DNA of 64,000 nucleotides from Paludibacteraceae bacterium (GCA_017509715.1 JAFWOU010000029.1:127838-191837), one strand, 5' to 3'; numbered from the stretch's first letter, positions 38,807 to 63,547 are shown. Notes: a model not told the origin generated them from the sequence alone. Numbers and translations are program-made.

Positions 38807-38830
38807 GGAGTAGTAAAAATCGCAATCTCC

Positions 38831-39327
38831 GCTTATCCCTTTTTGGCGTATTTTGTTTTGTATGTTCTCTTAAAGGAACAAGCCTCCCTCCAGCTTGTTC
38901 CTTTAATTACATTGTTGTTTTCATTTATCTCTTAAAGGTACAAGCTATGCCAACATTTATACTCCATGCTTGTACCTTTTAATATATTATGTAATCTTAA
39001 TTTCTCTTAAGGGTACAAGCTTCATCCCTAGTTGCAGTACTGGCTTGTTCCTTTAGTGTGGTAATTTTTCTACAATTTCCCTTAAAGGTACAAGCTATCT
39101 CTCTTGCTTGCTCCTCTACATCGTAGTAGAGTAGGCTTGTACCCTTAGTGCTTTTTATCTATTTATTAGTTCCTTAAGGGTACAAGTCAACACCTCTCCC
39201 CCCTTTGGCATGCTCTTTTAAGTATATATAATCATTTTATTTGTATGTATAGTGGGGTACAAGCTGAAATACCCCCTGGCTTGTACCCTTAAGGCAAAAA
39301 AAATCACAAGCTTGTACCTTTTTATGG
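38831..39327. repeat. array of about 6 inverted-repeat units with conserved arms (CTTAARGGTACAAGC / GCTTGTWCCTTTAA) and variable loops
   Basis: Arm pairs lie at 38870/38892, 38930/38968, 39006/39042, 39081/39134, 39173/39207 and 39254/39278, plus 39309. Loops range from about 8 to 40 nt and are unrelated in sequence. Confidence 0.8.
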
Positions 39328-39334
39328 CCTAAAA

Positions 39335-39366
39335 CTTGCACAAGTCGAAAAAAAATTGTACCTTTG
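39335..39366 (+). promoter_or_regulatory. Bacteroides-type promoter: CTTG-N20-TAccTTTG
   Basis: cttg lies at 39335-39338 and TACCTTTG at 39359-39366. The ATG at 39390 follows. Confidence 0.6.
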
Positions 39367-39389
39367 CAGTCGCAAAGGAATTTAGAACT

Positions 39390-40046
39390 ATGGCAAAAGA
39401 CAAACGTGTACATCAACCATTGAAGAAAGTGCGGATCACAGCCGTTCGGCAGACGGTATATCCGGACCTGATGGCTCAATACGAGAACCTCATTGAACAT
39501 GCGTGTACTATTCACGAAGGGCAAGAGTGGGTGTCGATCGACGCACAATGTCCGGAAGGCTTATGTGCCGCTGCGTGGGCATCGATGCGGGAGTTCGTGG
39601 TGGCTTTGGCGCATGGCAAGGGCAACTTCTATGACGGGTGGATGAAGAATCCGATGAGCGCGATGATCAGTTGCAACGATGGATTCCGGCCGTTTAGTTT
39701 TTATGTTGAGGCAATCGACGAACCAGCTGAGGAACCTAATGTGATTGTTGAGGAGCCAAGGAACAAACGGTTGCGTGGAGATGGTGCTGTGGATGAGCGT
39801 GTGAAGATGTTGGTGCGTGTGATCGGGAAGGCTGTGCTGCCGCGACGACAACTGGTGGCTGACTTGCAACTGCGGCAGAAGAGTAGGCGAACGTTTATTG
39901 ATCATTACCTCAAACCGGCATGTGACATGGGATTGATTGCTTTTGCGTACCCAAACTCTCCCACCAAACCCGAACAGGCCTACAAGCTGACGCAGAAAGG
40001 CTTGGAACTGTTGGCAACGCTAAATGGTGAGGATATGGAGACATAG
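39390..40046 (+). CDS. fusion protein: TIGR04076-like Cys-rich domain plus C-terminal winged-helix domain
   Basis: The N-terminal part is VRITAVRQTVYPDL...CPEGLCAAAW...ISCNDGFRPFSFYVE. The C-terminal part is RRQLVADL...FIDHYLKPACDMGLIAFAYPNSPTKPEQAYKLTQKG, paralogous to the 42053..42316 product. Confidence 0.55.
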   Translation: MAKDKRVHQPLKKVRITAVRQTVYPDLMAQYENLIEHACTIHEGQEWVSIDAQCPEGLCAAAWASMREFVVALAHGKGNFYDGWMKNPMSAMISCNDGFRPFSFYVEAIDEPAEEPNVIVEEPRNKRLRGDGAVDERVKMLVRVIGKAVLPRRQLVADLQLRQKSRRTFIDHYLKPACDMGLIAFAYPNSPTKPEQAYKLTQKGLELLATLNGEDMET

Positions 40047-40114
40047 ACTGTAGAGTAATTCTAAGCAAAATAATTGTTTATTGCTGCAAAAATCATTTTT
40101 TGAGCAAAAAGATT

Positions 40115-40145
40115 GACATAAATTTGCATATGTCGATTTTTTTTT
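40115..40145 (+). terminator. terminator-like hairpin plus T9 (overlaps the next promoter)
   Basis: The hairpin is gacata-aatttgca-tatgtc, followed by nine T. It lies 69 nt after the 40046 stop. Confidence 0.4.
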
Positions 40146-40154: not shown

Positions 40155-40208
40155 CACCGCAAAGGTAAATGAATATAAATATTAGTTGAATTTAATAGAA
40201 AAAGATAT

Positions 40209-41600
40209 ATGAAAATCTCTATTTTTGGTTTAGGTTATGTAGGCTGTGTGGGTGCAGCATGTTTAGCCAAGTTAGGCCACACCGTGATTGGCGTGGATGT
40301 CAATCAGAAAAAAGTGCGATTGATTAACGAGGGTAAGCCGACCATCATCGAGGAAGGGATAGCCGAGTTATGCGCTGAAGCACATGCGAAAGGGTTGATG
40401 TCGGCTACTATGGACGTTCGTGAGGCTGTTCATGCTACTGACGTTTCCTTCATTGTGGTCGGTACACCTTCATCTAAAGAGGGACACCTTAACCTCAATT
40501 ACATTTACAAAGTGGCGGAGCAGATTGGTGCTGCTTTGAGCGACAAACCGGCTAACAAAGACGGATTGCGCCATATCATTGCGATTCGATCGACGGTGCT
40601 GCCGGGGACGAATGAGAAAGTGGGGGAGATCATAGCTCAGTCGAGTGGGTTGGTACGAGGGAAGGACTTTACCATCGTCAGCAATCCGGAGTTCCTGCGG
40701 GAAGGGACGTCGGTGAAAGATTATTTTAACCCGCCTTTGACGTTGGTGGGCACCGACATGCCGGAAGCAGAGGCTGTGTTCCGGGAGATATACAAAGGCA
40801 TTGAGGCGGAGTTCATCTGCACCGATATCCGCGTGGCTGAGATGATGAAATACGTGAATAACACCTATCACGCGCTGAAGATTGTGTTCGGCAACGAGGT
40901 GGGAAACATCTGCAAAGAGCTCAACATCGACAGCCACAAAGTGATGGAGATATTCTGCAAAGACAAGCAACTCAATATCAGTCCGTATTATTTCAAACCC
41001 GGTTTTGCGTATGGTGGTTCGTGCTTGCCAAAAGATATGAAGGCACTCAAGACCCTGGCGCATGATCATTATGTAGAAGTACCGGTGATTGAAGCAATTG
41101 GCGAGTCGAACGAGTTGCAGAAACGTCATGCAGTGCAGTTGATCATGGCGCAAGGACAGCGCAAAGTGGGTATTTTGGGCCTGTCGTTTAAGTCGGGAAC
41201 GGACGACCTGCGTTGTTCGCCGATTGTGGATGTGGTGGAGAGTCTGCTGGGCAAGGGATTCGAGATCCGGATTTACGATAAGAACGTGAAAGTGAGTGAG
41301 TTAACCGGCACGAACAAGGATTTTATCATGGCGAAGATACCGCACTTGCAGCATTTTGTGACGGACGACCTGGAGGCTGTGTGCCGTGAGAGCGATGTGC
41401 TGGTGGTGACGAATAAAGAGAAAGAGTTCGCCGAACTGCTGGCTCGCTACCCCAATAAAACGGTAGTGGATCTTGTTCGTCAGTGGAAAGAGGTGGATTA
41501 TGAAGGTCATTACGAAGGCCTTTCGTGGGGCGATATCAACACCAACCGCACAGGTCAAGAAACCACTATAGCACAGGATTTCCGGCAGACGGAGTTCTGA
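40209..41600 (+). CDS. nucleotide-sugar 6-dehydrogenase (UDP-glucose/GDP-mannose dehydrogenase family, AlgD-like N-terminus)
   Basis: It has MKISIFGLGYVGCVGAACLAKLGHTVIGVDV and a catalytic Cys context FAYGGSCLPKD. Confidence 0.8.
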   Translation: MKISIFGLGYVGCVGAACLAKLGHTVIGVDVNQKKVRLINEGKPTIIEEGIAELCAEAHAKGLMSATMDVREAVHATDVSFIVVGTPSSKEGHLNLNYIYKVAEQIGAALSDKPANKDGLRHIIAIRSTVLPGTNEKVGEIIAQSSGLVRGKDFTIVSNPEFLREGTSVKDYFNPPLTLVGTDMPEAEAVFREIYKGIEAEFICTDIRVAEMMKYVNNTYHALKIVFGNEVGNICKELNIDSHKVMEIFCKDKQLNISPYYFKPGFAYGGSCLPKDMKALKTLAHDHYVEVPVIEAIGESNELQKRHAVQLIMAQGQRKVGILGLSFKSGTDDLRCSPIVDVVESLLGKGFEIRIYDKNVKVSELTGTNKDFIMAKIPHLQHFVTDDLEAVCRESDVLVVTNKEKEFAELLARYPNKTVVDLVRQWKEVDYEGHYEGLSWGDINTNRTGQETTIAQDFRQTEF

Positions 41601-41729
41601 TCTCGTCAAAAGGTGTTGTCCGATAAAATCGACTGTGCTAAATTCTTGACCTATTTTATCGAATCCTACCCACAATCTGTAGATGCTGTCCGCACGGCAG
41701 ATATGAGTTTTGGGGAGAAATTTAAGTAG
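41601..41729 (+). pseudogene. DUF354 3'-end remnant #1 (42 codons)
   Basis: It translates to SRQKVLSDKIDCAKFLTYFIESYPQSVDAVRTADMSFGEKFK*. This aligns with the end of the 42445..43200 ORF (SRREKMLSDIIDCAKFLTYFIEQYP...FWERFK*). It abuts the dehydrogenase stop codon. Confidence 0.7.
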
Positions 41730-41795: not shown

Positions 41796-42053
41796 AGCCT
41801 GGCCCTTTTTTGAGGAGATTTATATTTGAGTAGAGTTAATACATGGCCTGGTCCTTTTTTGGGGGGTAAGTTATCCAGTAGTAGTTATATATAGCTTGGA
41901 TGTTTTTGAACTAGTCTCCTTCCATGGCTTGGATCTTTTTGAACCTCCCCATCGCGTCCAGCCAATAGAGTAGGTCTCTCCCCAAAACAAAAAACACCCA
42001 TGCCACTCATAGCTTGGATGCTTTTGAATTATTGGCTTGGATGTTTTTGAACC
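41796..42053. repeat. array of direct repeats GCYTGGNYSTTTTTGRR (6 copies; 2 more at 42333-42366)
   Basis: The copies are agcctggcccttttttgagg 41796, ggcctggtccttttttgggg 41845, agcttggatgtttttgaac 41893, ggcttggatctttttgaacc 41926, agcttggatgcttttgaat 42011 and ggcttggatgtttttgaacc 42034. Confidence 0.8.
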
Positions 42054-42316
42054 TAATCTTCCTGTTGGTTCTGTGCCTCAAACTCCTTCAAATGTTTCAT
42101 CCCCTTCTCCGTTACAAAATACGCTTGCTCCGGTTTGTTCGGTGTCTCTACATACAAGAACCGCACATAACCCATCTCCATGGCCGGATTCAGGTAATGC
42201 AACCGAAAATTGCGACGATTATTCAGATGCATATCTCCCTGGATCTGCCTCCGTGTCTTCGTCTCATCACCGATGCTCTGCAACAGCGCCTCAATCTTAT
42301 TATGCCTTACATTCAT
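42053..42316 (-). CDS. small winged-helix protein (paralogue of the C-terminal domain of 39390..40046)
   Basis: 87 aa, with RRQIQGDMHLNNRRNFRLHYLNPAMEMGYVRFLYVETPNKPEQAYFVTEKG. Its own promoter lies at 42373-42404. Confidence 0.55.
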   Translation of the reverse strand: MNVRHNKIEALLQSIGDETKTRRQIQGDMHLNNRRNFRLHYLNPAMEMGYVRFLYVETPNKPEQAYFVTEKGMKHLKEFEAQNQQED

Positions 42317-42444: not shown

Positions 42445-43200
42445 CAATTTCCATTGTATCACGAACTGGCATACCTCCATCCGAATCATTTTACACCCGA
42501 TCCGAAGATTGTCGAAGCATATGGCATCGATACATCCAAACCCTATTTCGTCATGCGCTTCGCTTCCCTCAATGCCCACCACGACTCCGGCATCAAAGGC
42601 ATCAACACGGAGATTGCGCAGAGGCTGATTGATATTCTTGAGAACTCAGGTTCAGCTTGTTCCCTTTCTACCTCTTCGGGGAACAAGCCTCGCATATACA
42701 TTACTTCCGAACGTCCGTTGGAACCGCAGTTTGAGCAATATCGTATTAAGATCAACCCTCTCGACATGCACCACGTAATGGCGTTTGCATCGCTCTACAT
42801 TGGTGATAGCCAGACCATGGCTGCCGAAGCCGGAGTCTTAGGCGTTCCCTTCGTCCGCTTCAACGACTTCGTTGGCCGCATCGGCTATCTCCGCGAACTG
42901 GAAGATGTCTATGAACTCGGTTACGGAATCCATGCCACTCCATTGGCTTCCGATAGTCCGATCCGTCGCAACGATGGTTCCCTCCAACCGAGTGGAGTAG
43001 AAGAGCTCTACAAGCGCGTTGAGCAGCTGGTCGCTATGCCATCCGATGAACGCCGTGCCTCTTTCCAATCCCGCAGGGAGAAGATGCTCAGCGACATAAT
43101 CGATTGTGCAAAATTCTTGACCTATTTCATCGAACAATATCCCTCCTCTGCCTCAGAAGTTAAAAATGCCACCCCTGATTTCTGGGAAAGATTTAAATAG
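42445..43200 (+). pseudogene. DUF354 gene lacking about 150 N-terminal codons (3'-end copy #2)
   Basis: The frame opens just after a stop at 42442. LYHELAYLHPNHFTPDPKIVEAYGI aligns with residue ~153 onward of the 37772..38806 protein (TKEWAYLNPRTFVPKVEVLEKYGV). There is no ATG or promoter in front; the only start is TTG. Confidence 0.6.
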
Positions 43201-43223
43201 CTTGTTCCCTTTTGGGGGTACTT

Positions 43224-43394
43224 GTTCCTTTTTGGAGTACTTGTTCCCTTTTGGCTTGTACCCTTAAGGAATTAATTAAAAACTTAAAAACGCTAAAAGG
43301 TACAAGCTAACATAGTCACCATTGGCTTGTTCCTTTAAGGAGCATTAAAATAATAAATAATAATTAAAAGGTACATGCTGATGGCACGGAAAAT
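43224..43394. repeat. direct repeat A (~170 bp), partner at 46148-46313
   Basis: The two copies are near-identical apart from one 6-nt indel. They contain GCTTGTACCCTTAAGG / AAAAGGTACAAGC motifs. Confidence 0.9.
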
Positions 43395-43970: not shown

Positions 43971-44363
43971 ATGGCTAACGAATCAGTAATCAAATTGTTT
44001 GAAGGTAAGCAAGTGCGTATCGTATGGGACGAGGAGCAAGAGAAGTATTATTTTTCTGTGCTGGATATTGTGCAAGTATTAACAGATAGTGCAGATGCAA
44101 AGCAGTATATCAAGCGTTTGCGTACGCGTGATGCAGAACTGAACCTCAAGTGGGGTACAATTTGTACCCCTGTTGAAATGGAGGCTTTAGACGGGAAACG
44201 TCGTAAGGTTCAAGCTGCTGATTTACAAGGTATATTCCGCATTATACAGTCGATACCATCGAAGAAAGCAGAGCCAGTAAAGCAGTGGTTGGCTGAGTTG
44301 GGACAGATGCGAATTGATCAGATGATAGATCCAGAGCACCAAGGGAAGAGTAGTGAAATATAA
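43971..44363 (+). pseudogene. Bro-N domain (DinD/antirepressor-like) gene, apparently 3'-truncated
   Basis: It has IKLFEGKQVRIVWDEEQEKYYFSVLDIVQVLTDS...KQWLAELG, typical of a Bro-N domain. The ORF stops at 130 aa without the usual C-terminal domain. Confidence 0.5.
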
Positions 44364-44411: not shown

Positions 44412-44504
44412 ATGAGAAAAATCGGAATTTCCGAATAATCTGTCAAGATTACCAGGCCCTCTGCTTGTAAGGCAGATTTAGAGTTTTGGAAGATGTTTAA
44501 ATGA
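44412..44504 (+). pseudogene. direct repeat C containing a degenerate DUF354 3'-end remnant (#3)
   Basis: Bases 44412-44492 are about 98% identical to 49198-49278. It translates to ...SVKITRPSACKADLEFWKMFK* (compare ...QTCNADQEFWKRFK*). Confidence 0.65.
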
Positions 44505-44763: not shown

Positions 44764-46113
44764 ATGAGACGGAAGATATATGAGCAGTTGGTGCAGTGGA
44801 AAGAACATGAACAAGGACATGTGGCACTGCTGATAGAAGGTGCACGACGCGTGGGGAAGAGTTATATCGTGGAAGAGTTTGCGCAGAAGGAATATAAGAG
44901 TTATATTCTCGTGGACTTTGCGCATATAACGAAACCACTGAAACGTGTGTTCGATGACTATCTGGAGGATACGGATACGTTCCTGTTATACCTGCAACAC
45001 GTCACCGGCAAGAAGCTGTATGCGCGTGAGTCGCTGATCATCTTCGATGAGATCCAGAAATATCCGAGAGCACGTCAAGCTATCAAGCATCTGGTGGCAG
45101 ACGGACGGTATGACTACATAGAGACGGGATCGTTGGTAGGAATAAACAGTCAAGCAGAGGATATACTGGAGCCATCGGAGGAACGTCCGTTGACGCTGTA
45201 TCCGATGGATTTTGAGGAGTGGTTATGGGCAATGGGTGATGAGATGACGATGCCGTTTATCCGAGATTGTTTTGCTCATCAGCGTCCGTTGGGTCCGGTG
45301 CACAGGAAGACGATGGATCTGTTTAGGCAATATTTGATAGTAGGAGGCATGCCGCAAGTGGTGCAGAAATATGTGGAGACGCGTGATTTTCGTGAGGCAG
45401 ATAGGCAAAAGCGTGATATTCTGTCGTTATATAGGCGCAGCATAGGCAAGTACGCAAAGGGATATTCGGAGAAAGTGCGGCAGATATTTGACCAGATACC
45501 GGGAGAGTTGCAGCAGCATGAGAAGCGATTCCGTTTGTCGGACTTGGAAGAAGGAGCGCGGTACAGGAGTTATGAGTCGTCGTTCCTATGGCTTCAGGAT
45601 GCGATGATGACAAACACGTGTTATGCGGTGACGGAGCCGACAGTAGGGATGAAGTTGCGGCGCGTGGATAATGTGTTCAAGAGCTATATGAATGACACGG
45701 GATTATTGTTAGCCCATGCGTTCGACGAGAAAACGATACAAGGAGAGGAACTGTATCAGAAATTGCTGCTGGACAAGCTGGAGATCAACGAAGGGATGCT
45801 GGTGGAGAACATCGTAGCGCAGATGTTTGTGGCGAGTGGGCATAAGTTGTATTTCTACAGCAGTTACGATAAGGAAGACGCATCGAATCGGATGGAGGTA
45901 GATTTTCTGATCGAGAAATCGACGCTGACGAATGCGCACAACATCCATCCGATAGAGGTAAAATCGGGGACGAACTACACGACATCGTCGCTGAATAAGT
46001 TCCTGACGAAATTCAAGGCGCAGTCGGCTCAGCCGTACGTGATTCACAGCAAGGATTGGGAGGTGAAGGACGGAGTGATTTATATGCCGTTCTATATGGT
46101 GGCGCTGTTGTGA
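44764..46113 (+). CDS. AAA ATPase with DUF4143-like C-terminal domain
   Basis: It has Walker A LLIEGARRVGKSY and Walker B-like LIIFDEIQ. The C-terminal VDFLIE...IHPIEVKSG is nuclease-fold-like, as in the AAA_14/DUF4143 family. Confidence 0.65.
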   Translation: MRRKIYEQLVQWKEHEQGHVALLIEGARRVGKSYIVEEFAQKEYKSYILVDFAHITKPLKRVFDDYLEDTDTFLLYLQHVTGKKLYARESLIIFDEIQKYPRARQAIKHLVADGRYDYIETGSLVGINSQAEDILEPSEERPLTLYPMDFEEWLWAMGDEMTMPFIRDCFAHQRPLGPVHRKTMDLFRQYLIVGGMPQVVQKYVETRDFREADRQKRDILSLYRRSIGKYAKGYSEKVRQIFDQIPGELQQHEKRFRLSDLEEGARYRSYESSFLWLQDAMMTNTCYAVTEPTVGMKLRRVDNVFKSYMNDTGLLLAHAFDEKTIQGEELYQKLLLDKLEINEGMLVENIVAQMFVASGHKLYFYSSYDKEDASNRMEVDFLIEKSTLTNAHNIHPIEVKSGTNYTTSSLNKFLTKFKAQSAQPYVIHSKDWEVKDGVIYMPFYMVALL

Positions 46114-46147: not shown

Positions 46148-46313
46148 AGTTCCTTTTTTGGAGTACTTGTTCCCTTTTGGCTTGTACCCTTAAGGAATTA
46201 ATTAAAAACTTAAAAACGCTAAAAGGTACAAGCTAACATAGTCACCATTGGCTTGTTCCTTTAAGGAGCATTAAAATAATAATTAAAAGGTACATGCTGA
46301 TGGCACGGAAAAT
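46148..46313. repeat. direct repeat A' (partner of 43224-43394)
   Basis: See repeat A. Confidence 0.9.
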
Positions 46314-46328: not shown

Positions 46329-46666
46329 ATGGAACAGAACGAGAATACAGGTGATATTCTGATCTATCAGAGTGAGAACGGTTTGACTCGCATCGATGTG
46401 CGGCTCGAACAAGAGACTGTTTGGCTGACGCAACAGCAGATGGCTGAATTATTCCAAACATCGCGTACCAACGTGGTGGAACATATTCAGCACATCTACG
46501 AGGAAAGAGAGTTGAGTCCGGAAGCAACCTGTCGGAAATTCCGACATGTTCAAAAAGAAGGCAGCAGAATGGTAGCACGTGAGATGCGAACACGTTGTCA
46601 CCGGTGGAGGAGGCGTATCTGGAGACGATAAAAGCGTTGGCTGCGGAGACGAAGGGGAAGAAGTGA
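46329..46666 (+). pseudogene. RhuM-family gene remnant (N-terminal ~75 codons joined out of frame to a short C-terminal piece)
   Basis: ILIYQSENGLTRIDVRLEQETVWLTQQQMAELFQTSRTNVVEHIQHIYEE is typical of a RhuM N-terminus. The frame then breaks. A different frame reads ...VEEAYLETIKALAAETKGKK* ending at 46666. Confidence 0.5.
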
Positions 46667-54329: not shown

Positions 54330-55653
54330 AGTATTAGGATATAATGTGACGCGACAGAGGAAGAATGCTTATTTACATGTTTCCTTAGAGATTGAGTTTC
54401 CCGAAGGAAGCCGAACCACGTCGTGTAAGATTAATATATCTGAAATTGGTTACTTCTTCGGCAGAGTTCCAGACTTTGTCACATCGTTCTTGCTTATGTC
54501 TGCGATAGTATACGCAATTGATCGTTCTGTATATCGAGAGAAATACTCTGTGGATGGTTGGTCAAGAGAATTTGAAGTGGATTTTGCTCTTCCTACGGCA
54601 GACATTTTTATGGCTAATAAAGAACATATCGATGGGTTGCTTTCCTATTTGACAGGAGATTATTGGAATTGTAATTTTACTTCATATGTGCTAAATCAAC
54701 TGCCAAGATGGAGAGAATCCCACTATTTTGATGATGTAAAGCAAGTGAATCTTTTTTCTGGAGGAATGGATTCGTTGATAGGTGCTATTGATAGCATGGA
54801 ACGTATGATCGAAGGTACCGTGTTTTTAGCATCACATTACGATGATACAATGGGAGGACCGAAAACTGACCAAAAAAGATTGTTGCATCGTTTTGTCAGT
54901 GCATATAATGGGCGTTATAAGAAGTTTAGTACCCCTGTATTGATCTCACCTGAAGTTTCTTCCGATACGACTTGTCGTTCACGTTCAATGTTATTCATCG
55001 CTATTGCACTGCAAGTTGCCGCATATAGGACTGTGGATATCGTTGTTCCAGAAAATGGCTCTGTCTCGCTTAACTATCCGTTATCTCCTTCGAGAAGGGC
55101 ATCATGTAGTACACGAACTACTCACCCTGTAGTGATAGCCAAATTGAAGAAACTATTAGAAAATGTAGGCATGCCTATCAATATAGTTAATCCCTATGAG
55201 TTTATGACGAAGGGAGAGATGGTACAAGCGTGTGCAAACAGACCATTCTTGTTAGATGTGTTACCTGTATCTAATTCATGTGGGAAGAGAGCAAGAAAGC
55301 AATTCTTTTTAGAAGACCATAGTGCAACGCATTGTGGGCACTGTATGCCTTGTATGTACCGGAAAGCTGCTCTTGTTGGGTATGTTGATAGGAGTAGGTA
55401 TGGGGTGTCTATTCCGCGTTTATACGCAGAACGAATGCACAAAATTTCTGATGATTTCTATGCGATGCTAAATTTCTTAAAGAGAGATCTGACGGATGCC
55501 GAGATAGCACGCGAATTGAGGATCGCAGGTATGGGAGGAATGGATCATTTTGATGATTATGTGCAATTAGTGAAGCGAACTCGCGAGGAACTGAAGCGGT
55601 TGATAAATGCGGAAGGTTCATCTGATACGAAGATATATATAGGTTTATGCTGA
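54319..55653 (+). CDS. qatC: QueC-like PP-loop ATPase (QatC-like)
   Basis: It has the PP-loop NLFSGGMDSLIGA and a C-terminal Cys cluster SNSCGK...HCGHCMPCMYRK, like the QueC zinc site. Confidence 0.65.
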   Translation: MRIRVLGYNVTRQRKNAYLHVSLEIEFPEGSRTTSCKINISEIGYFFGRVPDFVTSFLLMSAIVYAIDRSVYREKYSVDGWSREFEVDFALPTADIFMANKEHIDGLLSYLTGDYWNCNFTSYVLNQLPRWRESHYFDDVKQVNLFSGGMDSLIGAIDSMERMIEGTVFLASHYDDTMGGPKTDQKRLLHRFVSAYNGRYKKFSTPVLISPEVSSDTTCRSRSMLFIAIALQVAAYRTVDIVVPENGSVSLNYPLSPSRRASCSTRTTHPVVIAKLKKLLENVGMPINIVNPYEFMTKGEMVQACANRPFLLDVLPVSNSCGKRARKQFFLEDHSATHCGHCMPCMYRKAALVGYVDRSRYGVSIPRLYAERMHKISDDFYAMLNFLKRDLTDAEIARELRIAGMGGMDHFDDYVQLVKRTREELKRLINAEGSSDTKIYIGLC

Positions 55654-56333
55654 TTGATGCGCATTGCCATATTGACATGTTGAAGAATCCGGAAGCGTAC
55701 TTGCAGAAGCAGGAACGGGATGGGAATATTACTATCGGGATGACGAATTTGCCAAGTCATTTTGAGATGGGGTATCCTTATTTTAGGAATTTGAAGCGTA
55801 GTCGATTGGCATTGGGGTATCATCCATTGATGGTTGCTGTGAATCCGAATGAATTGAGGTGCTTTAAAAAGTATTTGCCGTACACATCATATATCGGTGA
55901 GATTGGATTGGATTTCTCGCGAGAAGGGATAGGGTGCAAAGAGATGCAAATGGAGATGTTGCGAAAGATATTGGAGAGTATATCGGGAGAGCGAAAGATT
56001 GTGAGTGTTCATTCGAGGCGAGCTGAGAAAGAGTTGTATGGCTTGTTGCGTGAGTATGACATAAAGAATGTGATTTTTCATTGGTATGGCGGACCATTAG
56101 GATTGATAAGTGAAATAGAGTCTGCGGGATATTATTTCTCAATCAATGAGGCGATGACATATTCGCAGAAAGGGTGTGCTATTATAAAAAAGATGTCCAG
56201 AAGTCGGATTTTGACTGAGACGGATGCTCCGTATAATGAGAAGAATAACATAGTTGCTATGTTAAGACAAGTGGGCATGAGTGAGGAACTGGTAACGGAG
56301 AATTTTTATAGATTGTTGGAAGGAATTAAATAA
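55647..56333 (+). CDS. qatD: TatD-family metal-dependent hydrolase/DNase (QatD-like)
   Basis: It starts MLIDAHCHID, and has later SVHSR, IFHWY and ETDAPY motifs. Confidence 0.75.
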   Translation: MLIDAHCHIDMLKNPEAYLQKQERDGNITIGMTNLPSHFEMGYPYFRNLKRSRLALGYHPLMVAVNPNELRCFKKYLPYTSYIGEIGLDFSREGIGCKEMQMEMLRKILESISGERKIVSVHSRRAEKELYGLLREYDIKNVIFHWYGGPLGLISEIESAGYYFSINEAMTYSQKGCAIIKKMSRSRILTETDAPYNEKNNIVAMLRQVGMSEELVTENFYRLLEGIK

Positions 56334-56670: not shown

Positions 56671-59346
56671 ATGGATACTATGAAGACCAATGAGGACTCC
56701 AACCAACGGACAGATCTTCAACACAAACAACGTACAATAAAAGATCTAATTCGTTTCATTAAGAATGTTAGTTATCGGAATGCAGACAAACATCTGCCGA
56801 CTCCTAATTTTTCTGTTTTATTAGGAGCAGGTGCTTCTGTGACATCAGGCATTCGTTCTGGTCAAGATCTAATTATGCACTGGAAAACAGAAATCTATAA
56901 AGATATGAATGATGCCTCAAATGTAGGTGAATTAACAACAGAGAAGATAAATGCGTTTTTTGACTCTACTCGCTTGGATTGGTATGATAAGTCAAATCCG
57001 TATTCATCTCTTTTTGAAAAGCAATTTGATTTACAACGTCAAAGGAGAATTTTTGTAGAAAAGGAAGTGGCGAATAAAAATCCCTCCATTGGATATGCTT
57101 ATTTAGTAAGATTGATAGATGAAGGGTATTTTAATACTATATTTACAACTAATTTTGACGATTTACTGAATGAGGCATTTTATCGTTATTCACATAGTCG
57201 TCCTATCGTCTGTGCACACGATTCATCAATTACTGGTGTAACGGTGACATCGGAACGGCCTAAAATCATTAAGCTTCATGGCGATTATTTATATGATAAT
57301 ATCAAAACCACATTGCGAGAGACAGAGTCCTTGGAGTCGAATATGCGCATGAAGTTCCAGGAATTTGCTAAGGATTTCGGATTAATTGTGGTGGGATATT
57401 CAGGACAGGATCGTTCCATTATGGATATTTTGACTTATTTATTACAGCATGAGGAGTACTTCAAAAATGGTGTTTATTGGTGTCTCAGGAAACAAGATCT
57501 CTTCCACTTGAGCACTGAACTTAAAAAGTTATTATGGAAGGAACGGGTGTACTATGTCTTAATAGATGGCTTTGATGAGTTAATGGCTGAATTTAATAAT
57601 GATTTGAATAATGGCTCATTACCTATAGATGATTCGTTCCTGAGTTGGAGACATCAAGAAGATACTATTAGAGAACTTACGGAAAATAAATTCCTTAAGG
57701 AATCTAAATCCTATATACTTGAGTCTGCATTTAATCGCCTTAATAAGGAGTTAAATAGTAGTAAGTATAATGATTTTATTAACTATCTTAAGAATATTAA
57801 TGAAAAATCGCGTGATGGAGGAAAGAATAATTCATATAAAAGGCGTCCAGAGAGAAAAAGTTATCTAAGAGACCTTTCGGACGAAGAGAGACAGACTCTT
57901 GAAGAGATGCAGCGTAATATTTTTATGGCGTCTCATAACAGAACTTCTCTGAAAGTTAAAACGCAACTAGAAAACATGGATATTCTTAAAATACCTGATA
58001 GTAAGTATAAATTAGAATTATTGCAATTATACGTAGATAGTCATGAGAATCTAACAGACCAACAAATACAATTATATTTTAATGAACTTATACGTTTGGC
58101 TCCAAAAGAGCAAAAATATTATGTTATAGCTTCTAATCGAATAAAGAATTACCAATTATCTATAAAATATATTGAGGATGCTCTTATGTATTTCCCCAAT
58201 GATGCATTTGTTCATGAGCAAATAGCAGAATTATTAATTGAACATTTCGAAGATGCAGGTGCAGCAACATTGGAAGATTTGCAGAAAGCAGAGGGGCATA
58301 TCCAAAGAAGTATCGAGTTAGATGGTAGTGTAAGAAATGATGCATATGGATATCAGGCTCGTTTATATAAATTCAAATATAAAAATGATATTCAAATATT
58401 GAAAAGTAAACAAGATGAATTATGCACGAAGCTATTAGAACAAGATCCTCACCATCCCAATGTATTATACGTTCTCAATCTGTGCAATAAACTAACAGAG
58501 AAGACTATAAAAGAAAGCATAGACTTTTACGCAAAGGCTGATGATAATATTTCTCTTGAAAAATGCTATATGCATTTGTTAGATTTATATGCTGAAGGCT
58601 CAACATATTCTTTCTCTGATATTTCGCAAATTTTTGCAGAATATGAATCACAATTTGAGCCATCTTCAAGTTATCAGATGAGAAAAGGAATGTTGTTAGT
58701 TCAATATGAATATTTGCAAGATGCAGTAGATATTTTTGAATCTCTCGAAGAAACTGAACGAGTTATCATACAAAAATTGAAATGTTATGCATATTTAGAG
58801 CAAAAAGATAAATTTGAAAGTTTATACAATAAAGCAAATAAAACGCCAGTAATCCAAAAGGCTTATTATGAGTTCTCAAATCAATACGAAGAGTTGAAAG
58901 AATATATTAAAACTAACGAACCGATAACATCAGAGAGCTCTATTGGGGAAGTGTTAGAATATGTATTTATATTACTGAAGGTTGGTGATTTCGCTGAAGT
59001 GGAAAGAATATTGAAACCATATTATGACTCTCCACAGTATTGTAATGGAGTTATAATAATAAACTATTTGTTCGCACGTCAAAAACTAGGCAAGAATGTA
59101 GATGGTCAAATAAGAAATAAGATAATAGATTCAAAATATATCCAGTATGAGGACCTCGAGAAAATAGGTGCCTATGGTGTGCTTGGAGATAAGCAAGAAA
59201 TGTATAAGCACCTCAGTAGACTTCTTAAACAGAAGCCGATATTTAAATATAGTATTGATACATGGCCGATAATGGACAAATATAGAAATGAAGAAAAATA
59301 TATTAGTTTTATGAAAAGAAATCCTCAAAGTTTGCGTGAGATATAG
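56671..59346 (+). CDS. SIR2-like (SIR2_2) domain protein with a long C-terminal helical-repeat (TPR-like) region
   Basis: It has VLLGAGASVTSGIRSG, IFTTNFDDLLNEAF and IIKLHGDY. About 550 residues of helical-repeat-like sequence follow. Confidence 0.7.
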   Translation: MDTMKTNEDSNQRTDLQHKQRTIKDLIRFIKNVSYRNADKHLPTPNFSVLLGAGASVTSGIRSGQDLIMHWKTEIYKDMNDASNVGELTTEKINAFFDSTRLDWYDKSNPYSSLFEKQFDLQRQRRIFVEKEVANKNPSIGYAYLVRLIDEGYFNTIFTTNFDDLLNEAFYRYSHSRPIVCAHDSSITGVTVTSERPKIIKLHGDYLYDNIKTTLRETESLESNMRMKFQEFAKDFGLIVVGYSGQDRSIMDILTYLLQHEEYFKNGVYWCLRKQDLFHLSTELKKLLWKERVYYVLIDGFDELMAEFNNDLNNGSLPIDDSFLSWRHQEDTIRELTENKFLKESKSYILESAFNRLNKELNSSKYNDFINYLKNINEKSRDGGKNNSYKRRPERKSYLRDLSDEERQTLEEMQRNIFMASHNRTSLKVKTQLENMDILKIPDSKYKLELLQLYVDSHENLTDQQIQLYFNELIRLAPKEQKYYVIASNRIKNYQLSIKYIEDALMYFPNDAFVHEQIAELLIEHFEDAGAATLEDLQKAEGHIQRSIELDGSVRNDAYGYQARLYKFKYKNDIQILKSKQDELCTKLLEQDPHHPNVLYVLNLCNKLTEKTIKESIDFYAKADDNISLEKCYMHLLDLYAEGSTYSFSDISQIFAEYESQFEPSSSYQMRKGMLLVQYEYLQDAVDIFESLEETERVIIQKLKCYAYLEQKDKFESLYNKANKTPVIQKAYYEFSNQYEELKEYIKTNEPITSESSIGEVLEYVFILLKVGDFAEVERILKPYYDSPQYCNGVIIINYLFARQKLGKNVDGQIRNKIIDSKYIQYEDLEKIGAYGVLGDKQEMYKHLSRLLKQKPIFKYSIDTWPIMDKYRNEEKYISFMKRNPQSLREI

Positions 59347-59478
59347 AATGTAAAAAACATAATTGATTGATTTGTTGTAACTTTATATGCGACATTTTGT
59401 GCGAAAATGTATGCACGCAAAATAGAAAAAGGCTCATATCATCGCGCATAAGTTTGAACAAAAAGTAAGAAAATAAGG

Positions 59479-60885
59479 ATGAGTTATTATAGTACACATT
59501 TTGGAGTGAAACACTCGGCATTTGTAGAAGCAGGAGTGTTTGATGGTCAGATAGGGGAAGATGCATCAATGCACATTAATCCGCTTATGCTTCGTAACTG
59601 CAAAGAAGCGGAGTTTGATGGAGCATATGAGGAGTTCTTGGCATACTTCAAACCGATTATGGATTTAGCTAAGCATGTCCAAAATGTAACGAGGAACGAT
59701 AGGTGTTTTCGTCAAATATGTGTGCGATTTCAATTCAAAGAGTTGCCCAATACCGGACTTGGATATGCGACAAACGGAAGTCATGGCAACGGGATTAGCG
59801 GTAAATTAGCACAACAGTTGGCTATAAATGCGATAGAGATTGTACGATTAGGGATAGAAGATCCAACTATATTTGCTTTATTGCCCCTATTTGAAGAAGG
59901 AATAGGAGCAGATAGGATAAGTGATATGACTATAACCATCCTATATAAGCGATTTTTAGCATATACAGCGCGCAAGGCTAAGGAATTATCCCTGCCGACA
60001 ATATTATTCGTTAACAAAACACAACAGGAGCGTTATCTCCTCCCACACTATAAGCGTAAATGTATGGTGCTAATCCCGGCATCTATTCTATCGGATTTGC
60101 CGATGGCTTCAGATCCGGCAGATATAGACCATGTGAGTGGCTATAATAGCAGTTTGCGTAAAATTATTTGCGAGGCTATTGGGCTTACATGGAAAGATTA
60201 TGAGGATATGCATAAATCTGATTTAAAACGAGAGTTGTTAGCAGATGCGGAACGGTTAGAGGGTATATTGAGTAAAGTATCGGTAGCGACATTCCAACCA
60301 TATGATTTTACAAGAGATGGAAAGCTAAAGTATCTATATCCATTTATTAAGGAAAATATCATTGAGCCAAATCCATTAAAACTTCCTGAGGTAACAGAAC
60401 GGAATGTAATGGATGTAGTTATGCAAATTTGTACACAGTTCAAAGACTTGATAGAGGTGCATCGTATGAGTGTTTTGTTATACAAAGATGGTAAACCACA
60501 AAAAGAGGATGTAGTACAACGGCTATTTTATTGTATAGCAACATCTTATTGTGATGCTAATGATATTGACATCAATAGAGAGTCCGATTCGGGATGTGGT
60601 GAGCTAGATTTCAAGTTTTCCGTAGGTGCTCATAAAAAGGTAATTATTGAAGTGAAGTTATCTGGAAATAATCAACTTGTACATGGTTTAACAACTCAAT
60701 TGCCCATTTATATGGAAGCAGAGAATACTCAAGAGGGTATATATATGGTTATGCGTATGTCGCCAAAGGATGATAATGAGATCGAAAAAGTAATTGAAGT
60801 GCATAAAAAGATGTCAGACGATACGACGAAACCACGATTATTAATTATTGATGCCGTACCGAAACCAAGTGCAAGTAAGGCTTAA
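59479..60885 (+). CDS. hypothetical protein with a C-terminal PD-(D/E)XK-like nuclease motif
   Basis: 468 aa. The C-terminal segment ...GCGELDFKFSVGAHKKVIIEVKLSG fits the D ... E-x-K restriction-endonuclease-like core. The N-terminal ~350 aa were not recognised. Confidence 0.5.
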   Translation: MSYYSTHFGVKHSAFVEAGVFDGQIGEDASMHINPLMLRNCKEAEFDGAYEEFLAYFKPIMDLAKHVQNVTRNDRCFRQICVRFQFKELPNTGLGYATNGSHGNGISGKLAQQLAINAIEIVRLGIEDPTIFALLPLFEEGIGADRISDMTITILYKRFLAYTARKAKELSLPTILFVNKTQQERYLLPHYKRKCMVLIPASILSDLPMASDPADIDHVSGYNSSLRKIICEAIGLTWKDYEDMHKSDLKRELLADAERLEGILSKVSVATFQPYDFTRDGKLKYLYPFIKENIIEPNPLKLPEVTERNVMDVVMQICTQFKDLIEVHRMSVLLYKDGKPQKEDVVQRLFYCIATSYCDANDIDINRESDSGCGELDFKFSVGAHKKVIIEVKLSGNNQLVHGLTTQLPIYMEAENTQEGIYMVMRMSPKDDNEIEKVIEVHKKMSDDTTKPRLLIIDAVPKPSASKA

Positions 60886-60947
60886 AACACCAAAAATCGT
60901 TCTTTTCATTACAAAAGTAAGAAATATTAAAGAAATTGGGTGAAAAA

Positions 60948-60979
60948 TTTGGAGAATTGAAATAAATGTAGTAATTTTG
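60948..60979 (+). promoter_or_regulatory. Bacteroides-type promoter: TTTG-N20-TAatTTTG
   Basis: TTTG lies at 60948-60951 and TAATTTTG at 60972-60979. Confidence 0.6.
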
Positions 60980-61022
60980 CAGCGGATTTGCAATTTATAA
61001 TTGATGTGTGATAAATAGCAAA

Positions 61023-61976
61023 ATGGATGTTAACGTACGAAATATCAGCGAATACATCGAGAAAATGGTAGGTGCAGAAGTGCAGATCGAGCCATTAGAT
61101 AAGGCTAAAAGGCAAGCACTTCCGGTTCTGATTACGAATGCCTATCAGTTGCTGCAATGTCAGTTGCTGGGTGCGGAGGTGAGTCTGATGGTTTGCAAGG
61201 ATGCCAATGCGACACCGATGCAACTGAAAAAGCATTGTGCGATAGTAGAAAGGGCATTGGAGATGCATGCTGCTGTGGTGCTGCCGGAAGTGAAGCCGTA
61301 CAACATGAAGCGGTTGGTGGATGCACGAGTGAACACGATTGTTCCGGGACGTCAGTTGTTCCTGCCTTCGCTGCTGATGGATCTGCGTGTACAACGTAAT
61401 CCGGTGGATATGGTAGGCAAACCGATGCCGGTGATGGCACAAGTGGTTGTGCTATACCATCTACAGAAGCATAGTCTGAACTGGATGTCGGCTCAGCCTA
61501 TTGCAGAGTTGATGGACGTATCGTACCCGAACATCAATCGCGCTGTGAAATGGTTGGCAGACAATGGGTTTGTTGAGTTGAGTCTAGGCCGTGAGAAGCA
61601 GATGCAGTTCATCCATGAAGGTAAGGAACTATGGGAGCAAGCGTTGCCGGTGCTGCAGAGTCCGATTGAGCGTGTGCTACGAACGGATCGAATGTTGGAT
61701 GCGTATGTTTGCGGAGAGGAGGCGTTGGCTGAGTTGACGATGTTGGCAGAACCGCAGGAACGGCATTGGGCCATTACGAAACAGGAAGCGCAACAGTTGG
61801 GTGCGGAGTTGCACAAGGAGTTTGGTGAGCATGTGGTGGAGGTTTGGCGCTATAATCCGAAGTTGATGGGAGAGAACGGGATGGTGGATAGGCTGTCGTT
61901 GTATTTGTCGCTACGGGACACAGAGGATGAGCGGGTAAGGAAAGAGGTAAAAGGATTGGTAATTGGTAAATGGTAA
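61023..61976 (+). CDS. winged-helix protein, AbiEi-like antitoxin/regulator candidate
   Basis: SAQPIAELMDVSYPNINRAVKWLADNGFVEL is MarR/wHTH-like. It is directly coupled to the downstream nucleotidyltransferase-fold gene by a 7-nt overlap. Confidence 0.4.
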   Translation: MDVNVRNISEYIEKMVGAEVQIEPLDKAKRQALPVLITNAYQLLQCQLLGAEVSLMVCKDANATPMQLKKHCAIVERALEMHAAVVLPEVKPYNMKRLVDARVNTIVPGRQLFLPSLLMDLRVQRNPVDMVGKPMPVMAQVVVLYHLQKHSLNWMSAQPIAELMDVSYPNINRAVKWLADNGFVELSLGREKQMQFIHEGKELWEQALPVLQSPIERVLRTDRMLDAYVCGEEALAELTMLAEPQERHWAITKQEAQQLGAELHKEFGEHVVEVWRYNPKLMGENGMVDRLSLYLSLRDTEDERVRKEVKGLVIGKW

Positions 61977-62749
61977 TTAGTGATATGATAACGGGATTGG
62001 AATTGTTTAAGGAGCGGTTTGCGGCATATGCGGACAGTTATGTGCTAATCGGAGGTGCGGCATGTTATGTGCATGAAGAGGCGGGTGCTCAGATGCCACG
62101 TGCCACAAAGGATCTGGATGTAGTGCTGGTGGTAGAGGCGTTGTCAGCTGATTTTGTGCGTGAGTTTTGGCAGTTTGCGCGTGAAGGAGGCTATGAACGT
62201 CGTCAACGAAGCGCTGACAAACATGAGTGTTTCCGCTTCCTTAAACCGCAAGACAAGCGTTATCCGAAGCAAATTGAGTTGTTTGCACGTGCCATAGGGG
62301 TGCTGCATATTCCTGACGATGCTCATTTGGAGCCTATACCGGCAGAGGATGAGTTGTCAAGTCTGTCGGCAATATTGATGAACGAGAGTTATTATCGTTT
62401 TACGATAGCGCATAGTCGGTTGGAGGACGGATTGCATGTGGCAAATGCGGAGGCGCTGATATGCTTGAAGGCGAAGGCGTACAATGATTTGCGTGCACGG
62501 AAAGAGCAAGGAGGCGATGTGGATTCGGATGATATAGAGAAGCATAAGAAAGATGTGTTCCGCTTGGCACCGATGCTGACGGAAGGAGCACGATATGCGT
62601 TGCCGGAGGAGATGGAGGCTGATATGCGGGAGTTTGTGGCGAGAGTGGCTGAGGAGTTGCCGAATGAGGATTTTCTGCGTGCCGTAGGACTTGGTGCGCA
62701 ACGTGTGGAAGGATTGCTAGATGTGCTGAAAAGAGCGTATTTGGAATGA
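61970..62749 (+). CDS. nucleotidyltransferase-fold protein, AbiEii/AbiGii-like toxin candidate
   Basis: LIGGAACYVHEE...RATKDLDVVL fits the pol-beta NTase pattern G-G/S ... D-x-D. It is 259 aa. Confidence 0.45.
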   Translation: MVISDMITGLELFKERFAAYADSYVLIGGAACYVHEEAGAQMPRATKDLDVVLVVEALSADFVREFWQFAREGGYERRQRSADKHECFRFLKPQDKRYPKQIELFARAIGVLHIPDDAHLEPIPAEDELSSLSAILMNESYYRFTIAHSRLEDGLHVANAEALICLKAKAYNDLRARKEQGGDVDSDDIEKHKKDVFRLAPMLTEGARYALPEEMEADMREFVARVAEELPNEDFLRAVGLGAQRVEGLLDVLKRAYLE

Positions 62750-63540
62750 AGCCGTGGGTGGTGACATATAAGGATGCGAAATCGCTGGTGATATGCGGGG
62801 ATATACATGGTGAGTTTGTGCCGTTGGTGTATGAGATGTGTGTGCGGTACGGGATGCGGGATACGCTGGTGATTGTGGCAGGAGATTGCGGATTCGGGTT
62901 TGAGAAACCGGGTGCGTATGATCAGGTTTTTCGGCGTATCGAGAAGCGTTTGACGCAGAACAACTGCTGGATAGCGATGGTGCGGGGTAATCATGACGAC
63001 CCTGCGTATTTTGCTACGGATTCAGCTGGACATACTGCGATTGAGCACATGCGCTGGAGGACAGTGCCAGACTATGCGGTGATTGAGGCTTGCGGACGAA
63101 CGGTGCTGTGCGTGGGAGGTGCGGTGAGTGTGGATCGGCAGATTAGGTTGCAAGAGATGAGTCGGCATCCAGGGAAGGTGTATTACTGGCCGGATGAAGC
63201 AGTTCGGTATGATGCTCCGGCACTGGAGGCGATACGGGATGCCGGACTGAAAGTGGATATCGTGGTGAGTCATACGGCTCCGTCGTTCTGTGAGTTTCAG
63301 TCGAAAAGCGGATTGGCGAGTTGGGCAAAGGATGATCCGGGATTGATTGCGGAATGTGAGGTAGAACGGCAGACGATGGATGCGATTTTGGCACATCTGA
63401 AGCGAGATGGACATCCGTTGGAGCGGTGGTACTATGGACATTTTCATAACTCGTGGCATAGCGAGATAGATGGTGTGTGGTACAAGATGCTGGATATTAT
63501 GGAGTTGCTGGAGGTGCCGAGGATAAAAGAAGAAAATTAA
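62746..63540 (+). CDS. calcineurin-like metallophosphoesterase
   Basis: It has ICGDIHGEF, AGDCGFG, VRGNHDDP, VSHTAP and YGHFH motifs. An ATGA overlap joins it to the upstream gene. Confidence 0.75.
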   Translation: MKPWVVTYKDAKSLVICGDIHGEFVPLVYEMCVRYGMRDTLVIVAGDCGFGFEKPGAYDQVFRRIEKRLTQNNCWIAMVRGNHDDPAYFATDSAGHTAIEHMRWRTVPDYAVIEACGRTVLCVGGAVSVDRQIRLQEMSRHPGKVYYWPDEAVRYDAPALEAIRDAGLKVDIVVSHTAPSFCEFQSKSGLASWAKDDPGLIAECEVERQTMDAILAHLKRDGHPLERWYYGHFHNSWHSEIDGVWYKMLDIMELLEVPRIKEEN

Positions 63541-63547
63541 ATAGAAT

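Follow-up and report, generated by a model that had tools for sequence, protein, structure and literature searches.

Remnants of the DUF354 3' end in a defence gene hotspot between DUF354 and wecB at the border of a Bacteroidales polysaccharide locus

The DNA analysed here, a stretch of 64,000 nucleotides (nt) from a Paludibacteraceae bacterium (GCA_017509715.1 JAFWOU010000029.1:127838-191837; referred to as the window, with positions counted from its first letter), contains a slot of ~25 kb, filled mostly with anti-phage genes, between a full-length DUF354 gene that ends at 38806 and a wecB gene that starts at 63548. Comparison with related loci demonstrates that the DUF354-wecB junction is a variable defence hotspot, flanked by core genes, within a Paludibacteraceae-like clade of Bacteroidales that live uncultured in gut and rumen. 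Core-gene-flanked defence hotspots are known; what is new is that at this polysaccharide-locus boundary, in uncultured Bacteroidales, the tail of the flanking gene has been left behind as legible scars, and no earlier description was found in the literature on DUF354 or on polysaccharide-linked defence hotspots of Bacteroidales. Here the history of one such hotspot can be read directly from tails left at successive events, in several lineages and with partly overlapping cargo. Two mechanisms could be distinguished at this site by long reads or genetics, homology-anchored illegitimate joining and an unseen site-specific system.

The DUF354-wecB slot in related genomes

The left neighbour of the slot is a co-directional polysaccharide locus (~12-38.8 kb) with sugar-nucleotide, acyltransferase and glycosyltransferase genes. 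The flanks named in a preliminary description of this DNA, made from the sequence alone, both matched their Pfam families:

37772..38806, + strand, intact DUF354 gene of 344 amino acids (aa), called type A here, which closes the polysaccharide locus (PF04007)
63548..64000, + strand, 5' part of wecB (UDP-GlcNAc 2-epimerase), the conserved right flank of the slot (PF02350)

The comparison set comprised ~100 related loci (numbered with the prefix L); a scan of one genome per species gave 80 loci, mostly from metagenome-assembled genomes of Paludibacteraceae or Bacteroidales from rumen and gut. A wecB orthologue (75-87% aa identity) lies downstream of a 386-aa form of DUF354, type B, in 37 of these 80 species loci; in the others, where the gap exceeds 10 kb or is unresolved, nothing recognisable was seen within 10 kb of DUF354. 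The two genes are 3-125 nt apart in 12 loci, where the slot is empty, in agreement with the earlier view of DUF354 and wecB as common neighbours. The gap is 0.47-5.3 kb in the other 25 loci, five of which have wecB inverted. The variable stretch has sharp edges: homology between relatives breaks off with the stop codon of DUF354 and is regained 15-21 nt 5' of the wecB ATG.

The cargo is different in each case, and slots are filled with DUF4143 ATPases, winged helix-turn-helix (wHTH) proteins, HipA, KAP NTPases, FemAB-like proteins and GDP-mannose pathway genes. In the window the enrichment in defence genes comprises Septu, AbiH, Qat, SIR2 and the PADLOC candidates PDC-S01, PDC-S05 and PDC-S13; elsewhere the defence cargo includes a radical-SAM/SNF2/deaminase set, RhuM and HamA in L012, HipA in L058, and a KAP NTPase in L095 and L111. 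Sugar-pathway genes take the place of defence cargo in L038 and L065, and the metagenome contigs L010 and L012 carry other defence sets right after a full-length DUF354 gene. The presence/absence polymorphism that repeated insertion leads one to expect is present, with slots of 3-125 nt in 12 species, 790 nt in L071 and other cargo in L105, L111 and L120. No DUF354 remnant is found in 22 of the 25 filled slots of other species.

DUF354 3'-end remnants in the window

A hidden Markov model (HMM) built from 95 type-B C-termini and run on translations of the window, together with inspection of those translations, gave five DUF354 tails between the flanks, all on the + strand, and no sixth match in the whole 64 kb:

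41601..41729 (HMM span 41604-41726), + strand, remnant #1, at least 129 nt, abutting the stop codon of ugd (E 3.9e-23)
42454..43200, + strand, remnant #2, a 5'-truncated type-B DUF354 gene whose open reading frame (ORF) of 248 codons covers residues ~149-386 of 386 (E 1.6e-26)
44412..44504 (HMM span 44466-44501), + strand, remnant #3, in copy a of an 89-nt unit; the last ~45 nt are DUF354 tail (E 0.41)
46745..46864 (HMM span 46751-46861), + strand, remnant #4, 120 nt, with its stop codon 30 nt 5' of the Septu start (E 4.3e-17)
49198..49290 (HMM span 49252-49287), + strand, remnant #5, in copy b of the 89-nt unit, which travels with Septu (E 0.076)

All five copies listed in the preliminary description were recovered, #1, #2 and #4 strongly (E 4e-17 to 2e-26) and #3 and #5 by way of the 89-nt repeat, as only their final 12-14 codons are matched and each is weak by HMM on its own. 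The two copies of this repeat (44412-44500 and 49198-49286) are 98% identical to each other, and #3 and #5 share 80-83% DNA identity with #4. In L104 the 89-nt unit runs directly into the sequence that follows #1 in the window, which identifies the unit as a real DUF354 end.

The tails were rightly read as copies of a DUF354 C-terminus, but the intact upstream gene is not of their type. Sequence comparison assigns all five remnants to the 386-aa type-B DUF354 and not to the intact 344-aa type-A paralogue, which is 26% identical to #2 (BLASTP) and has a different tail. Remnant #2 is 82% identical over residues 149-386 to its 386-aa homologues, and its 5,242 matches are DUF354 proteins of 384-386 aa. 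The best match of #1 is a P0106-type tail, and native DUF354-downstream sequence follows it, with GCCTGGYCCTTTTTT repeats at 41797-41862 and a flank 94% identical to L104 2570-2685.

DUF354 is a recombination mosaic, its C-terminal half included: this half is ~80% conserved where the N-terminal halves diverge, and the identity of #2 to L010 and L071 varies from 51% to 96% per 60 nt. Across the family, synonymous sites of the conserved KIDxAKFLTWFIENYP block have reached saturation, and a family-wide attachment (att) site at the DNA level in this block was rejected for that reason.

Together with the relatives described below, ten independent scars are available, with lengths of 83, 89, ~98, 106, ~115, 120, at least 129, 138, 140 and 747 nt. 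The 5' edges of the nine shorter ones, at 83-140 nt from the stop codon, spread over ~57 nt in three divergent lineages and do not clearly share the common crossover core that had been anticipated among the remnants. The scars are 66-85% identical to the resident gene; the identical runs are 32 nt in L028, 41 nt in remnant R2 of L120, and 7-14 nt in L058, L119 and remnant R1 of L120.

Block order between the two 89-nt repeats and the two copies of a 172-nt repeat (see below) depends on short-read assemblies, and two independent assemblies were concordant.

The same architecture in relatives

L071 (RUG12984), the closest relative: TIGR04076-wHTH gene (93% nt identity), 5'-truncated DUF354 (86%, identical truncation point), eight GCYTGGTCCTTTTTTGA repeats, small wHTH gene, and wecB 790 nt past the DUF354 stop
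L105: wecB 89.6% identical to that of the window; 89-nt unit with the 85 nt to its left, 98% identical to the window
L111: other cargo, tail remnant of ~98 nt, seven hairpins, wHTH gene, wecB
L119: intact DUF354, repeats and hairpins, wHTH gene, 106-nt remnant, Fic, wecB
L120: intact DUF354, cargo, 83-nt remnant (R1), cargo, 138-nt remnant (R2), hairpins, wHTH gene, wecB
L028 and L058 (other species): one remnant each, from their own tail type

L104 shows an intact-looking DUF354 tail, the Septu operon, the 89-nt remnant and then native DUF354-downstream sequence, which after the stop of the 89-nt unit continues as the window sequence behind remnant #1. The Septu cassette (46868-49291) is 98.4% identical in this locus and sits there behind a different intact-looking DUF354 tail. 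In L119 the 3' part of the remnant and its flank equal the native tail and flank of L010, and the smallest block, in L028, is 188 nt long and holds no gene. From these sequences, the architecture of a gene with a fresh tail, cargo, an old tail and the native flank recurs independently in L104, L119, L120, L028 and L058, and L111 shows the same scar architecture with other cargo. The insertion point that had been proposed, at the 3' end of DUF354 with the end regenerated and the old end kept, is borne out in these six loci. Relatives do not share a uniform block order, and the tails are not chance matches of low complexity.

The truncation point of #2 is shared by L071. Two segments of the window are missing there, 40050-42445 and the 20 kb of 43201-63530, and #2 and wecB are 20.3 kb apart in the window vs 790 nt in L071. 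In L105 the 89-nt unit lies among unrelated cargo (AbiJ, DUF4145 / KAP NTPase, HD-CE). Apart from L104, the contigs found by exact-protein look-ups with PtuB, Bro-N, the type-A DUF354 and the truncated DUF354 all had one and the same clonal layout. Septu homologues at 83-88% identity (L106-L110) were set aside as junction evidence, as they belong to other polysaccharide-adjacent islands with no DUF354 remnants.

Several genes next to scars are cut on their 3' side, namely the RhuM fragment before #4 and the Bro-N fragment before #3, and in L111 a truncated small ORF is fused to the scar. The preliminary description had called Bro-N and RhuM remnants, and profile coverage confirms both as 5' fragments of longer genes. 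R2 of L120 is adjoined by a peptide that looks RhuM-like in the flanking translation (by reading, with no family search). Short relics appear in another order among relatives, which shows fine-scale shuffling between strains: a 5' stub of the Fic gene that is intact in L119 (its first 27 nt) lies at window 43487-43513, window 44511-44612 (102 nt) corresponds to L120 5554-5655 at 97% identity, and window 46672-46740 (69 nt) to L120 5459-5527 at 87%.

How the slot may have grown

The route that we favour, with belief and doubt evenly balanced, is growth by homology anchored in the C-terminal half of DUF354 combined with an illegitimate distal joint. Foreign DNA would gain entry by homologous recombination, with the conserved C-terminal half of type-B DUF354 as the anchor. 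It would carry its own DUF354 tail plus the donor DNA downstream of that tail, and its distal end would be joined illegitimately. A distal joint beyond the recipient stop codon would leave no scar, as would be the case for most filled slots, and a joint inside the last ~80-140 nt of the recipient gene would keep the old tail as a scar 3' of the new cargo. Repeated events would stack blocks, with the newest closest to the intact gene. Longer scars would form direct repeats able to loop the cargo out, and only short or diverged scars would persist. Both the route and this survivorship argument are what we infer from the arrangement of the scars. The low identity of the scars to the resident gene, with identical runs of only 7-41 nt, would make them a poor substrate for loop-out, and the one long scar, #2, has as its neighbour a type-A gene with which it shares no DNA homology. 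Scars, the 172-nt hairpin unit, the 89-nt unit, the 44511-44612 piece shared with L120 and the promoter-like modules described below could in turn supply internal homology for cargo swaps between strains. The slot of the window lineage contains relics of regulator and sugar modules together with Septu, AbiH, Qat, a SIR2 module, a DUF4143 ATPase and gene fragments.

Several observations weigh against this route. Scar lengths are far from random, with nine of ten independent scars measuring 83-140 nt (P < 5e-6 if lengths were uniform over 45-1160 nt), and the explanation of this cluster by survivorship is conjectural. The 89-nt unit keeps an exact left edge behind two unrelated left neighbours, which would not be expected of random joints. 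The scars of L028 and L119 begin with 32-40 nt that are near-identical to the resident gene, followed by sequence at ~65-70%, a pattern that resembles an att core. The illegitimate joint itself is a deduction, and the check for recombinases covers ~20 kb per relative and the 64-kb window. The length cluster, the fixed edge of the 89-nt unit and the att-like starts in L028 and L119 keep alive a trans-acting site-specific system, which we consider unlikely though deserving of serious weight.

In such a system DNA would be captured by a recombinase whose gene lies at another place in the genome. Its site, attB- or attI-like, would be the DUF354 tail around the codons for ...MLSEKIDxAKF..., and integrase-less cassettes carrying an attP-like mimic, e.g. 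the 89-nt unit, or a replacement tail would be inserted in trans. Satellites or degenerate tRNA-targeting islands, such as tycheposon remnants, pile up in tandem by in-trans insertion. Capture of this kind would account for 5' edges confined to ~57 nt in three divergent lineages, and for a remnant that is identical to the resident over 32 nt in L028, or near-identical over ~39 nt in L119, before it diverges as behind an att core. It would also account for an 89-nt unit with one left edge in different contexts and 98% identity, vs 89.6% for wecB, and for a Septu cassette behind two different DUF354 tails. However, no tyrosine, serine or DDE recombinase was seen in the called or scanned genes of the 64 kb or of the slots of the ~100 related loci, the edges do not fall at a single point, and the saturated synonymous sites leave no DNA-level site common to the family. 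The remnants have truncated cargo genes beside them and are absent from the majority of filled slots, and no viral contig carries a DUF354 tail.

A more daring form of this idea, which we rate as quite unlikely, is a Bacteroidales platform for gene-end capture, in which the DUF354 tail would be the docking site for integrase-less cassettes ending in a tail mimic (the 89-nt unit). The machinery may then lie outside the cassettes, as an unlinked recombinase or as the TIGR04076-wHTH protein acting on the hairpin arrays. If true, it would be an analogue of the integron in function, built of unrelated parts.

No mobile-element machinery was detected close to the slot. There is no integrase or transposase among the 58 longest non-overlapping ORFs of the window (the glycosyltransferase genes at ~15.2-32.1 kb were not individually scanned), as the preliminary description had noted for integrases, and no recombinase in any slot of the ~100 related loci where genes were called or scanned; the one transposase seen, of the IS3 family, is at the distal end of L106, an island that is related but has no DUF354. 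Scans of the window for tRNA genes and Rfam families found nothing. No DUF354 tail occurs on any viral contig, and there is thus no sign of a phage-like element with an attP site. Direct repeats of the target 3' end surround the blocks, with the gene regenerated, in L104, L119, L120, L028, L058 and at #1-#5 of the window, and no element-encoded integrase stands beside such a site, as the blocks hold cargo only.

The preliminary description had also proposed an integron-like stack, and this analogy fails. No intI gene lies beside the insertion site (Pfam search of the scanned ORFs of the 64-kb window), attC-like folding is absent (z-scores vs shuffles of +1.0 for #4 and -1.4 for #1, and only small local hairpins in the 89-nt unit), most block ends have no hairpin unit, 22 of the 25 filled slots have no remnant, and the edges are spread. 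The slot genes are co-oriented, and several have a promoter-like module of ~70 nt of their own. Nor do the block ends look like cassette boundaries, as had been supposed: genes 5' of several remnants lack their 3' side, a kind of end that illegitimate joints produce, and the last 14 kb of the slot, from AbiH to the three genes before wecB, hold no remnant. The stack of defence cassettes that had been described does not extend to blocks 1 and 2, which contain regulator and sugar-metabolism genes.

Instability caused by the hairpin arrays and the TIGR04076-wHTH protein is an improbable alternative to homology-anchored joining. Either palindrome breaks after the DUF354 stop would be repaired with foreign DNA, or the wHTH module would be a small site-specific element carrying a replacement tail. 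Arrays do lie right after DUF354 stops or remnants in the window, L010, L111, L119 and L120, and ~120 nt past the stop in L028; in L119 a new tail, hairpins and wHTH gene stand between the intact gene body and an old tail with the native flank of L010. Hairpin units have been inserted in-frame into DUF354, and the protein family is found mostly on 1-2 kb contigs, which suggests assembly breaks at flanking repeats. Nevertheless, the protein resembles a sensor joined to a wHTH regulator, with no nuclease or recombinase fold detected in a model of moderate quality (predicted local distance difference test, pLDDT, 68), and every context found is one chromosomal position, as expected of a local regulator. 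The repeat variant is specific to each wHTH paralogue and looks like an operator array, and most cassette boundaries have no hairpin.

Retention of the remnants for use has equally poor prospects. The tail would give expression signals (promoter, ribosome-binding context, coupling) to the next gene, and the survivors would be only those rearrangements that keep ~100 nt of tail 5' of a gene. In favour of this, wecB starts 3-60 nt past the DUF354 stop in empty slots, Septu starts 30 nt after #4, AbiH 45 nt after #5, and a 142-aa ORF of L105 starts 19 nt after the unit. On the other hand, inspection by eye found no Bacteroidetes-type -7 motif (TAnnTTTG) in the tails, the remnants #1, L028, L111, L119 and R2 of L120 precede repeat or hairpin arrays or a minus-strand gene rather than a coupled gene, and many cargo genes have their own promoter-like module. 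Finally, chance matches or mis-assembly of a repeat-rich metagenomic region are highly improbable, for even if #3 and #5 are weak alone (E 0.41 and 0.076) and the ends of short-read contigs coincide exactly with the 172-nt and 89-nt repeats, #1, #2 and #4 have E values of about 1e-17 or lower, the order is identical in both assemblies, the Logan contigs L100 and L103 span 172a-89a and 172b-89b, and the architecture is found in the unrelated samples L104, L105, L119 and L120.

Relation to known systems

The closest parallel is with the core defence hotspots of Pseudomonas aeruginosa and the hotspot atlas of Escherichia coli (Johnson et al. 2023, PMC10250203; Hochhauser et al. 2023, PMC10121019). 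As in those, the same two conserved genes flank a slot that ranges from empty to tens of kb, the content is defence-rich and lower in GC (guanine-cytosine) content with no hallmark mobile-element genes, and exchange via the conserved flanks is the favoured explanation. Unlike in those, the left flank here is the gene that closes a polysaccharide locus, the hosts are uncultured Bacteroidales, and hairpin arrays and a resident regulator are found in the slot as well. For cDHS1 and cDHS2 of P. aeruginosa a matching route through the flanks has been proposed, with the note that it leaves no scars (Johnson et al. 2023, PMC10250203), whereas here the tail of the flanking gene has repeatedly been left, recording successive events.

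Homology-facilitated illegitimate recombination, with a one-sided anchor, is known from transformation of Acinetobacter and Streptococcus pneumoniae. The likeness lies in one conserved anchor (the C-terminal half of DUF354) with foreign DNA attached and in a non-homologous far joint near the anchor; to our knowledge, there is no demonstration of it in Bacteroidales.

Integrative elements accrete in tandem at the 3' ends of tRNA or protein genes, as in tRNA-targeting islands and the tycheposons of Prochlorococcus. There, as here, direct repeats of the target 3' end bracket the blocks and the gene is regenerated, older blocks are displaced outward, and degenerate blocks have no integrase of their own. 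The present slot differs in having no integrase in view, repeat edges spread over ~57 nt, truncated cargo genes at block ends, and no repeat at most occupied sites in other species. With integrons and chromosomal super-integrons it shares a fixed site followed by a one-directional stack of small defence modules, mostly of one or two genes, and a short repeated unit (89 nt, 98% identical) that ends two modules, but it has no intI and no attC structure, several modules have promoter-like sequences of their own, and the unit is found in only two modules. We know of no Bacteroidetes that are integron hosts.

The hotspot places a rich and poorly sampled defence repertoire beside a polysaccharide locus that determines phage receptors, in abundant uncultured gut and rumen Bacteroidales. 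The DUF354 tail and the wecB start form a simple pair of anchors with which this repertoire can be mined from metagenomes.

Cargo of the slot

39336..40046, + strand, TIGR04076 and winged-helix (Fic-like_C) fusion gene (NCBIfam TIGR04076; PF21247)
40209..41600, + strand, ugd, UDP-glucose/GDP-mannose dehydrogenase (Pfam), whose frame ends at the stop at the edge of #1
42053..42316, - strand, small winged-helix (Fic-like_C) gene (Pfam), flanked by 5 copies of ATAGCTTGGATGTTTTTGAAC
43971..44363, + strand, truncated Bro-N domain gene, covering the first 124 of 286 positions of the PDC-S13 profile
44764..46113, + strand, AAA_14/DUF4143 ATPase, PADLOC candidate PDC-S01 (profile match)
46329..46631, + strand, RhuM-like gene fragment, first ~87 residues, PDC-S05 (profile match)
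46895..49164, + strand, Septu operon with PtuA of 502 aa (PADLOC 3e-25) and PtuB of 253 aa (8e-26)
49336..50682, + strand, AbiH split into two ORFs, 49336-49659 and 49678-50682 (PADLOC 2e-14)
51634..56333, + strand, Qat system with QatA (KAP NTPase), an unassigned 275-aa protein, QatC (QueC-like) and QatD (TatD)
56671..60885, + strand, SIR2-domain protein of 891 aa and a 468-aa protein, GC content 30-36%
61008..63540, + strand, three genes for a wHTH-containing protein of 322 aa, a 259-aa protein and a metallophosphoesterase of 264 aa

The cargo had earlier been called as Septu, a split AbiH, QatA, QatC and QatD, and SIR2, and PADLOC and Pfam matches agree with all of these; the Septu, Qat and AbiH assignments hold at the level of profile similarity (for Qat, 2e-98 with QatA, 1e-78 with QatC and 2e-45 with QatD). 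The AAA_14/DUF4143 ATPase family also occupies the slot in L024, L037 and L055. At its N-terminus the SIR2 protein is similar to the SIR2 subunit of short-Argonaute systems (PDB 8JKZ/8IN8, E 9e-22; PADLOC Aga_SIR2 models), and its 468-aa partner has no match in Pfam, PADLOC, NCBIfam or PDB; the two genes may form a SIR2 system that has not yet been described. The last three genes of the slot belong to the variable cargo, because homology with relatives resumes only at 63527-63533.

The ugd ORF exceeds the Pfam C-terminal domain by ~25 codons, and in an alignment to the DUF354 tail its TGA stands opposite a CAA (Gln) codon, which suggests that the final ugd codons may be remnant-derived sequence.

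Repeats and the TIGR04076-wHTH module

38831..39320, hairpin array of at least 5 units (GCTTGTWCC, ~28 nt, GGWACAAGC), directly after the DUF354 stop
43200..43394, direct repeats and a hairpin unit native to the DUF354 downstream flank; 43224-43394 is copy a of the 172-nt repeat
46149..46313, copy b of the 172-nt hairpin-unit repeat, 95% identical to 43224-43394

The hairpin motif is present 22 times vs 0.5 expected, and the array folds with a z-score of -5.1. The same array precedes the wHTH gene in L111, L119 and L120, and the hairpin unit of 43200..43394 is also found 3' of DUF354 or a remnant in L010, L119 and L120.

The TIGR04076-wHTH gene (1,116 family members) occupies the slot in L026-L028, L071, L111, L119 and L120. 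With GCTTGTAYC hairpin arrays it makes up a module that is conserved in the DUF354-wecB slot of at least 8 lineages and in both orientations, and the repeat variant near a wHTH paralogue differs from one paralogue to the next (window 41891-42367; L071 1255-1570). The protein is probably a regulator: in its AlphaFold2 model of moderate confidence only the wHTH half matches PDB structures (MarR/ArsR/Fic C-terminus), and Foldseek found no structural match for the N-terminal domain. A role as hidden recombinase gained no support, the Foldseek and HMM matches being only to wHTH regulators and the Fic C-terminal domain.

Type-B DUF354 itself, the proteins P0002 and P0003 included, has in-frame insertions of hairpin units (GCTTGTWCC...GGWACAAGC), always at the same position, behind '...RLIDILE'. 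The insertion measures 13 codons in #2 (window 42655-42688), ~39 aa in P0003, and ~106 aa (three hairpins, L120 4442-4729) in the otherwise intact 492-aa gene of L120. The hairpin repeat seems able to move or expand locally, and a surface loop of DUF354 seems to tolerate it.

A promoter-like module of ~40-70 nt (ending ...TTTG...GTACCTTTGCA), with 67-84% identity among copies, stands 5' of many unrelated genes in both the polysaccharide locus and the island (40087-40156, 43811-43880, 44703-44741, 50880-50949, 60943-60981, 12129-12206 and 13109-13178). It is a further portable linker and could be a source of short homology.

Upstream of the polysaccharide locus, the window contains a PARIS-like pair (AriA-type AAA_15/21 ATPase and DUF4435/AriB-like protein) plus a second AriB-like ORF (18-764 and 3934-6074), as well as HNH and PD-(D/E)XK genes. 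Defence genes consequently lie on both sides of the polysaccharide locus, as in L010 (DUF4062, TIR) and L012 (SLATT). Small genes for four-helix-bundle proteins of the 23S_rRNA_IVP family (bAvd-like) are found in or beside these polysaccharide loci, at 37347-37706 in the window and in L012, L070 (within the slot) and L106. Directly 5' of the ATG of the type-A DUF354 gene, the 14-nt tandem repeat TAAATTTGAAAYTT is present in ~5 copies (37691-37774).

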